64,000 nucleotides of DNA from a phage, in NCBI GenBank assembly GCA_017864995.1, contig GCA_017864995.1_4097.1; one strand, given 5' to 3'. The notes beneath the pieces were generated by a model. It was not told where the DNA came from, ran no database searches, and saw only the letters and a program-made list of their open reading frames with translations. This document shows, piece after piece, positions 10,252 to 10,738 of this stretch. The position numbers and the translations under genes are program-made. Numbering within the stretch: position 1 is the stretch's first letter; each line of letters opens with the position of its first letter.

Positions 10252-10416
10252 ATGACGCATGAAGAATGGATGAATGACATTAATTTTAGATATTCGGGTA
10301 TCGGTAGTTGGAGAAAATATCATTGGGAAATCATATCAGACCCAGCAGAATACGATAAACTTATGAATGATGGAGTGTATCCGTGGTTCTTTATTGAAAT
10401 AATGGTACGATTATGA
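10252..10416 (+). CDS. hypothetical small protein, MTHEEW family (copy 1)
   Basis: 54 aa ORF MTHEEWMNDINFRYSGIG; first ~55 nt nearly identical to copy 2; hand-translated. Confidence 0.5.
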   Translation: MTHEEWMNDINFRYSGIGSWRKYHWEIISDPAEYDKLMNDGVYPWFFIEIMVRL

Positions 10417-10577
10417 CACATGAAGAATGGATGAATGACATTAATTTTAGATATTCGGGTATCGGTAAATGGCTAAAGTATCATTGGGAATTCATTTCAG
10501 AGCCACATCTGTATGATAAACTTATCAACGATCCAGCATATGAAATGTACTTAATTGAACTACTGGTACGAACATGA
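10413..10577 (+). CDS. hypothetical small protein, MTHEEW family (copy 2)
   Basis: 54 aa ORF; ATGA overlap with copy 1; tandem duplicate. Confidence 0.5.
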   Translation: MTHEEWMNDINFRYSGIGKWLKYHWEFISEPHLYDKLINDPAYEMYLIELLVRT

Positions 10578-10738
10578 CACATGAAGAGTGGATGAAACGC
10601 CAAAAATTAAAGTGGAATCCTTATTATCTACCATTAGATTCTAGAATGTGGGATGTTATACGTGTTAAGTGTATGTACAAAGCATATTTAAGTACTGAAC
10701 TCGACGAAGAAGTACTGATGCATATCGTGCACCGATGA
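10574..10738 (+). CDS. hypothetical small protein, MTHEEW family (copy 3)
   Basis: 54 aa ORF MTHEEWMKRQKLKW; ATGA overlap with copy 2. Confidence 0.5.
   Translation: MTHEEWMKRQKLKWNPYYLPLDSRMWDVIRVKCMYKAYLSTELDEEVLMHIVHR

Follow-up and report, generated by a model that had tools for sequence, protein, structure and literature searches.

A family of very small tandem genes in Asteriusvirus jumbo coliphages and its apparent turnover by recombination at conserved coding ends

In the gene accordion, a viral host-range gene such as K3L of poxviruses is amplified in tandem under selection; the copies are near-identical and the amplification is transient. T4-type phages possess hyperplastic regions in which promoter-early stem-loop (PeSL) cassettes mediate modular shuffling (PMC2839356, PMC4122927). 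For the jumbo phage CBB, RpoD-like promoters were described as clustered among short hypothetical open reading frames (ORFs), which the authors suspect to be early host-takeover genes, and 22 paralogous ORFs were noted (PMC5259590). Here we describe a locus which resembles each of these systems in part. It lies in a stretch of phage DNA of 64,000 nucleotides (nt; GenBank assembly GCA_017864995.1, contig GCA_017864995.1_4097.1; hereafter the window), where three successive ORFs at 10252-10738 and a fourth at 8748-8918 encode related proteins that belong to a superfamily of small proteins with an MTHEEW-like N-terminus. What we find is a well-supported and fairly ordinary case of phage gene-family turnover, namely of a paralogous family of small, presumably early genes in a plastic region. 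Most notable in it are recombination junctions that are resolved to the base and arrays of 9-22 genes in uncultured relatives.

The three successive ORFs are located on the + strand at 10252-10416 (copy 1, subfamily A1), 10413-10577 (copy 2, subfamily A2) and 10574-10738 (copy 3, subfamily B). Each is 165 nt long, encodes 54 amino acids and begins MTHEEWM (copy 1 with MTHEEWMNDINFRYSGIGSWRKYHWEI), and they occupy three different reading frames with successive 4-nt ATGA overlaps. Copy 4 (subfamily C; +, 8748-8918; 171 nt, 56 amino acids, starting MTHKEWLDELKF) shares an ATGA overlap with the ORF upstream of it. The ORF list thus bears out the triplet as a first-pass annotation of this DNA had described it. 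The fourth member, which had also been named there, proved genuine: all four proteins give full-length alignments to the PHROG 10970 profile (positions 1-55 of 56), with E values of 1e-24 to 5e-29 (3e-26 for copy 1, 4.6e-29 for copy 4), and a hidden Markov model (HMM) built from the four copies recovers exactly those four among the 1321 ORFs of the window. Because of these profile matches and the specificity of the HMM, the similarity is far beyond chance.

The degree of similarity within the family is very uneven. The proteins of copies 1 and 2 are 70% identical; copy 1 shares 23-26% of its residues with copies 3 and 4, copy 3 being at about 23%. At the DNA level copies 1 and 2 form a 161-nt direct repeat with 77% identity overall, which is a mosaic: 54/57 nt (95%) are identical at the 5' end, compared with 78/108 nt (72%) in the remainder (Fisher p = 4e-4). 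Over this remainder 28% of positions are mismatched, and the proportion of synonymous differences is about 0.4. Selection was assessed as the ratio of nonsynonymous to synonymous rates (dN/dS), calculated by the Nei-Gojobori method with orthologs from the window and ten relatives. For copies 1 to 4 the ratios are 0.21, 0.30, 0.26 and 0.20, respectively, which shows purifying selection in all four subfamilies. Protein length, start motif and the pattern of helices persist at 15-25% identity.

Judged by its closest matches, the window is part of an Asteriusvirus (121Q/PBECO4-like) jumbo coliphage. Positions 8000-12000 are 98.8% identical to Escherichia phage EC.P1 (93% of the length covered) and about 90% identical to 121Q, and they also match 60 other records, mostly Asteriusvirus jumbo coliphages of 310-386 kb; named matching records include 121Q, PBECO4, phAPEC6 and slurp01. 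Copy numbers were compared by tblastn with copy 2 in 36 Asteriusvirus records, among which 121Q and PBECO4 are each present twice. Copies 1 and 2 were found together in 20 of the 36 records (121Q included) and copy 1 only in 14, and two records (JP4 and BAU.Micro_ELP-22) have a single copy 2-like gene. Copy 2 is accessory, being present in about half of the Asteriusvirus genomes; a copy 1 ortholog occurs in all 11 genomes compared except JP4. Copy 3 is always the final gene of the block. In every genome examined it lies downstream of copy 1 or, in JP4, of a copy 1/2 hybrid, and every genome examined has kept copy 3 together with a copy 1/2-type gene. The six three-copy genomes that were aligned all show the same mosaic of copies 1 and 2, with 93-95% identity in nt 1-57 and 72-76% afterwards. 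This indicates that the mosaic is older than the divergence of these genomes, across which copy 2 is 97-100%, copy 1 91-99% and copy 3 92-100% identical in nucleotides.

These data bear on the age and on the coding nature of the triplet. The first-pass annotation had taken the near-identical 5' ends of copies 1 and 2 as a sign of recent duplication and the three ORFs as a tandem triplication. The near-identity and the homology of the tandem coding genes stand, and both the 54/57 nt at the 5' ends and the 77% identity of the direct repeat are what a recent duplication or triplication in this genome could have left behind, with the identical 5' ends as its remnant. However, the same three genes with the same mosaic are present in 121Q, ph0011, WPEC5, EC.P1, CMSTMSU and others, copies 1 and 2 differ at 28% of nucleotides over their 3' two-thirds, and just about 23% of residues are shared between copies 3 and 1; to judge from this distance, copy 3 is an old paralog. 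Nor do the three-copy genomes look like one very recent clone, given copy 1 identities of 91-99%. The copy-number comparison, with the pair in 20 of the 36 records, likewise speaks against a recent origin. A recent duplication is not supported, seems already to be contradicted by the comparative data, and is in our view very unlikely. Still harder to believe is that the repeat is non-coding, or that one longer gene was broken into three by frameshifts or is read by programmed frameshifting. The successive ORFs in three frames with 4-nt overlaps do have a superficial likeness to frameshift sites. However, dN/dS values of 0.20-0.30 in every ORF speak against a non-coding repeat, every ORF begins exactly at its own ATG with the conserved MTHEEW, and members are also found singly or separated by gaps. 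More than 30 genomes, each sequenced independently, repeat the three-frame layout in which every start has an ATG of its own followed by the conserved N-terminus; this excludes a single longer gene split by sequencing frameshifts.

How copies are gained and lost can be read from two junctions. The single gene of JP4 carries the copy 1 markers (ACG at codon 2, through GGTAG) and continues with copy 2 sequence from the end of the shared block; JP4 differs from the three-copy state by exactly 161 bp, i. e. one gene. Copy 4 of the window is a hybrid, made up of two paralogs which WPEC5 carries as separate genes. Its 5' flank and nearly the whole gene correspond to the WPEC5 paralog L010:4001, and from the codons of the last helix (W-F/Y-I-Y-E-L-A) on, including the stop codon and the 3' flank, it corresponds to the paralog L010:4729. 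The 728 bp between these two paralogs in WPEC5, including an unrelated 504-nt gene, are missing from the window. The junctions in JP4 and copy 4 indicate that unequal homologous crossover takes place within the conserved coding blocks at both the 5' and the 3' end. Moreover, the nearest relatives of neighbouring copies disagree: copy 1 of the window is closest to EC.P1 and WPEC5, and copy 3 is closest to ph0011 and CMSTMSU. This points to recombination inside the block between co-circulating phages. In 121Q, copy 2 bears the copy 1-type ACG at codon 2, and an extra paralog is located between copies 2 and 3 in contig L140.

The 5' identity block of copies 1 and 2 falls on the N-terminus that is invariant throughout the family, and crossovers between copies occur there, as the JP4 hybrid and the copy 1-type codon 2 in copy 2 of 121Q demonstrate. 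It can thus be read as a reflection of constraint together with recombination or gene conversion, and not of youth. Gene conversion between copies 1 and 2 is suggested by the sequence pattern.

Copies also appear to decay. Genes 115 and 116 of 121Q (L002 2249-2422) represent one family member (MTHEEWLVQTEHLVIASMKF*NEQLMH...) that is split by a TGG-to-TGA stop, at a position where the intact relative in contig L138 has Trp. From this comparison the two genes read as a nonsense-mutated pseudogene annotated as two coding sequences. The copy 3 ortholog of CMSTMSU (L007 5821-5985) has a disrupted start, with YDT*RVDETPK... where MTHEEWMKRQK is expected; as this record is flagged UNVERIFIED_ORG, the disruption may be a sequencing error and not decay.

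The turnover of the family is best described as birth-and-death evolution by unequal recombination in conserved ends, as far as sequences can tell. Unequal crossovers in the conserved 5' and 3' coding blocks add or delete gene-sized units together with intervening DNA, pieces are swapped between co-circulating phages, and some copies decay. We hold this structural and evolutionary part of the explanation with high confidence. It resembles the gene accordion in that a small viral gene changes its tandem copy number through recombination between repeats. Unlike accordion copies, which are near-identical, the MTHEEW paralogs diverged long ago (15-70% identity), are each conserved and have become fixed in lineages.

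The family extends beyond the four copies, and here the first-pass annotation, which had seen a real feature correctly and misread it in part, missed a fifth member and the larger arrays in relatives. The ORF that overlaps copy 4 by ATGA (+, 8566-8751; 61 amino acids, MQPKTFDEWF...) matches PHROG 31562 (E 5.7e-42). It joins the family in an iterated HMM search (E 6.6e-16) and in profile-profile comparison with hhalign (88% probability, E 3e-6), and differs by a 3-residue N-terminal extension (MQPK-T-F-D-E-W). The window thus contains five members, arranged as the pair 8566-8751 and 8748-8918 plus the triplet. PHROG 10970, matched in full length by the four MTHEEW proteins, and PHROG 31562 are separate families in the PHROGs database, without function or description; here they are joined as one superfamily with large tandem arrays. 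We define this MTHEEW superfamily by a length of about 50-65 amino acids, an N-terminal M-T-x-x-[ED]-W, four predicted helices and a tandem arrangement on the same strand, and the copies in the window show these features in the alignments and in an AlphaFold2 model.

The largest arrays were found in uncultured relatives (Logan and ENA contigs). Counted by iterated HMM with E below 1e-3, same-strand arrays comprise 22 members in L137, 17 in L013, 12 in L011 and 9 in L138. They are near-continuous at the syntenic locus (L137 7167-11644, L013 6001-9417, L011 286-4379) and many members are joined by 4-nt overlaps; the median pairwise identity in L137 is 18%. The closest relatives of the ORF 8566-8751 lie within the large arrays of L013 and L137. 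Synteny with the Asteriusvirus locus extends to the contigs that encode distant members: upstream they have the same genes, among them a DUF1353 gene that phage A4 also has, and downstream the same tRNA cluster. A few small ORFs interspersed in the L137, L013 and L011 arrays were not recognised by the profile and may be more divergent members.

Outside this lineage the searches returned next to nothing. With tblastn over 50,697 phage records, members were found only in Escherichia and Salmonella Asteriusvirus. A word-indexed search of 5.8 billion proteins gave 16 clusters, and an exhaustive profile search of 1.84 billion representatives gave 22 proteins with E up to 0.001, nearly all of 54-60 amino acids and with an MTH-EW start. 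One hit of the exhaustive search, P0031, has 1052 amino acids and matched only profile positions 20-40; it is probably unrelated and was set aside. Another family member, P0012, is labelled as an Escherichia coli protein (ABV23_RS01095) on a contig of 357,761 bp, whose source is probably a lytic jumbo phage assembled within bacterial isolate data. Scans of IMG/VR returned only 121Q itself, with one confirmed locus in the profile-guided scan; a degenerate-DNA scan of IMG/VR for ATGACNCAYGARGARTGG gave 120 loci, all of which were rejected by the family HMM apart from 121Q. In a control with 120 unrelated viral loci, the family HMM had no match except the 121Q contig. A wide family alignment contained no conserved stretch of 7-10 columns. 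On these similarity searches, the MTHEEW proteins are a superfamily of orphan proteins of about 55 residues found only in this phage lineage.

The proteins are predicted to be small bundles of four short helices. With an alignment of 40 sequences, AlphaFold2 placed helices at residues 3-15, 18-29, 31-39 and 44-52 (mean predicted local distance difference test, pLDDT, 83.8; predicted template modelling score 0.57); with 20 sequences the pLDDT was 72.6. Invariant or nearly invariant positions are M1, T2 and W6, then E5, I/L28, Y/F34, I/L50 and R53, and variability is high at the positions in between. The last helix, which is hydrophobic, ends with Arg in most members. In the model Thr2 directly precedes helix 1, with Glu three residues on. 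Ser/Thr-x-x-Glu is the classical helix capping box, and the N-terminal M-T-(H)-x-E-W is plausibly such a box followed by a core Trp. At the DNA level the ATGA overlap forces codon 2 to begin with A. A metal-binding motif at the N-terminus (X-X-His) was considered but dropped, since distant members have K, R, Y, L or F in place of His3. Each protein has an aromatic content of 13-20%. The net charge is -4.3 for copy 1, -4.2 for copy 2, +0.8 for copy 3 and -0.1 for copy 4; DNA mimicry as a common property was rejected, since copies 3 and 4 are not acidic. The family proteins had no match in Pfam, PADLOC or a PDB sequence search, NCBI-style names were likewise uninformative, and Foldseek with two models found no fold neighbour in the PDB and just a family member in BFVD.

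The triplet is preceded by a tRNA-Ser(tga) gene (+, 10055-10144; found by ARAGORN, Rfam tRNA 61.7 bits) in the same orientation and by a tRNA-like element (+, 10149-10227), which ends about 20 nt before copy 1. Upstream of both is a promoter-like site (+, 10015-10044) with TTGGGA, an 18-nt spacer and TATAAT, a TG before the -10 (extended -10) and 10/12 consensus matches. No terminator-like sites were found on the + strand in 8000-12500, and hence none before the strong promoter at 10748. The promoter-like site and the lack of a terminator make a unit of tRNA-Ser, tRNA-like element and copies 1-3 likely. Host sigma-70 RNA polymerase would transcribe this unit as one early transcript from the upstream promoter. 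Copy 1 has a Shine-Dalgarno-like AAGG 9 nt upstream, and copies 2 and 3 have GGT only. These weak upstream motifs together with the ATGA overlaps suggest that translation of copies 2 and 3 is coupled to the preceding cistron; lacking a good ribosome-binding site, they would be translated by termination-reinitiation. We infer that the triplet sits in an early, plastic part of the genome that is driven by the host polymerase. Exact TTGACW-N16-18-TATAAT sites occur 20 times in the window, all on the + strand, versus 0.38 expected, and each of ten scanned neighbour ORFs falls in a function-less PHROG or in no PHROG.

The tRNA-like element was missed by ARAGORN and by a whole-window Rfam scan. It was detected by a search of the short stretch only, with an Rfam tRNA score of 32.6 bits (gathering score 29); the fold z-score is -0.72. 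The element has acceptor, anticodon and T arms and a long variable region but no D arm, 4 nt replacing 15 D-arm positions of the model, and its anticodon loop is CUUCUAA (UCU). The anticodon arm is 90% identical to that of the adjacent tRNA-Ser. The element is identical in 121Q, where it is annotated as tRNA-Leu(taa), and in EC.P1, PBECO4 and A4. The slot in slurp01, ph0011, UE-S1 and JP4 holds an unrelated canonical tRNA-Arg(tct) between conserved flanks, a difference that reads as a cassette swap keeping the UCU anticodon. Six tRNA genes are present in the window (two Ser, Met, Asn, two Thr), the same set as reported for fEgEco12 (PMC13070987). The two tRNA-Thr(tgt) genes (+, 13974-14047 and 14054-14127; Rfam 73.8 and 73.9 bits) stand in tandem 6 nt apart and may be a tRNA gene duplication.

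Downstream, the triplet is bounded by a 42-nt promoter cassette (+, 10747-10788; CTTGACTAAATAGTTCAGTACTGTATAATG...; repeat family D2) with 11/12 matches to the sigma-70 consensus. Further copies on the + strand are located at 11168-11209 (42 nt, 100% identical), 11479-11520 and 12239-12266; a motif search gave 3 matches versus 0 expected. The identical cassettes at 10747 and 11168 flank a single gene of 121 amino acids (10807-11172). The cassette spacer contains the 8-nt palindrome CAGTACTG; further occurrences precede TATAAT at 28429 and 43608, and the form AGTACTG is present at 32740. Alignments with fEgEco12, vB_Ec-M-J, Turkey3 and others end approximately at query 3189-3201 (window about 11188-11200), inside the cassette, and that with BF17 ends approximately at query 3495 (window about 11494), inside a cassette copy. 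Another set of near-identical consensus promoters, TTGACTTCGGTCRGCCCTTTTTGYTATAAT, is present on the + strand in five copies with 2-3.6 kb spacing (34519-34548, 38113-38142, 41156-41185, 45780-45809 and 47848-47877); its G+C-rich spacer resembles half of a stem.

This setting has much in common with the hyperplastic regions of T4-type phages: the region is plastic and contains small, non-essential-looking orphan genes and strong sigma-70-like promoters. As with PeSL cassettes, the 42-nt cassette is a predicted strong promoter that is repeated, with 100% identical copies at 10747 and 11168 and 11/12 consensus; synteny with relatives breaks at these copies, and indels between close relatives may thus be bounded by short repeats here too. 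Unlike PeSL, no stem-loop terminator is joined to the cassettes of the window (+ strand, 8000-12500), and the crossover substrates of the family are the conserved coding ends of the paralogs and not regulatory cassettes. The phage itself is not of T4 type but a RaK2-like jumbo phage, and CBB, with its RpoD-like promoters clustered among short hypothetical ORFs, belongs to a related RaK2-like group (PMC5259590). However, the early region of CBB is an in-silico prediction, and among the cultured phages searched no MTHEEW homolog was found outside Asteriusvirus.

What the proteins do can be proposed only tentatively. A possible interpretation is that they are non-virion intracellular binding proteins with a conserved core and variable surfaces, each paralog engaging a different host target or target variant in host take-over or counter-defence. 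We consider this functional part, early intracellular binders of host components, possible at best; the whole explanation, a selected small-protein family in birth-and-death evolution with an early host-binding role, is the best available and somewhat probable. Mass spectrometry identified 62 proteins in phAPEC6 virions, with none of the orthologs gp094c-096c and gp099c-101c among them (PMC7247149). Several points weigh against the explanation. Virion mass spectrometry readily overlooks small proteins, so that their absence from the proteome is weak evidence. The searched literature on Asteriusvirus, including 121Q/PBECO4 transcriptomics, gave no expression data for any Asteriusvirus, and promoter calls are consensus pattern matches. 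The Pfam, PADLOC, PDB sequence and PDB fold searches gave no link to a target, and, with net charge varying between paralogs, there is no common DNA-mimic signature. On the evolutionary side, the surplus of 5' matches between copies 1 and 2 loses its significance when synonymous sites are taken alone (1/9 versus 8/20, p = 0.2), and gene conversion is thus suggested, not proven. In the literature on Asteriusvirus and on tandem small-protein families we found no description of the MTHEEW family. A bolder version, which we regard as doubtful, would make the family a recombination-driven arsenal of cassettes on a constant scaffold: the conserved 5' and 3' codons would double as crossover handles by which arrays of up to 22 or more small helical binders are rapidly assembled, swapped and expanded, each binder would neutralise a different host defence or factor variant, and the proteins would form a new counter-defence class with a new fold. 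Such an arsenal would be to proteins what PeSL shuffling is to regulatory cassettes.

A different role is suggested by the neighbourhood. The proteins could act with the adjacent phage tRNAs, as inhibitors of anticodon nucleases or as factors that process or stabilise tRNAs, and this main functional alternative would explain why members are always in or beside the tRNA cluster. The argument for it is one of adjacency: the triplet begins about 20 nt past the tRNA-like element and probably shares a transcript with tRNA-Ser, in relatives tRNA-Gly is flanked by copy 4-type members, and the arrays of L011, L013 and L014 abut tRNA genes. However, the region of the cluster is generally plastic and also harbours homing endonucleases and numerous unrelated small ORFs, so that the adjacency may be a coincidence; no RNA-binding signature is present and copies 1 and 2 are acidic. 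We thus regard a tRNA-linked role as unlikely. The early-type promoter context and the small all-helical fold would also suit modulators of transcription or replication (anti-sigma-like or polymerase-binding) with no part in counter-defence, and known phage regulators of host RNA polymerase are similar in size. Yet such regulators are normally single-copy and conserved, whereas here 4 to 22 copies occur with 15-25% identity between paralogs, and the search for similarity to solved structures found none, so that we think this quite improbable. Finally, the copies could be largely dispensable passengers, the family persisting through its duplication-prone conserved ends and not through distinct functions. 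Copies are gained and lost frequently, 121Q carries a pseudogene and hybrids are tolerated, all of which would fit. Against this stand the purifying selection in all subfamilies and the fact that none of the genomes examined lacks either copy 3 or a copy 1/2-type gene, and we give it little credence.

Irrespective of function, the MTHEEW family offers a base-resolved case of how an orphan-gene family grows and shrinks, in which conserved ends serve as crossover sites and exact hybrids (JP4, copy 4) are preserved. For annotation, two PHROGs are linked and the 121Q pseudogene, at present two genes, is flagged. If the proposed host-binding role is true, lineage-specific, very small early proteins with a fold absent from the PDB would be added to the host-manipulation factors of phages, and the arrays of 4 to 22 paralogs would constitute a natural library of variants on one scaffold.

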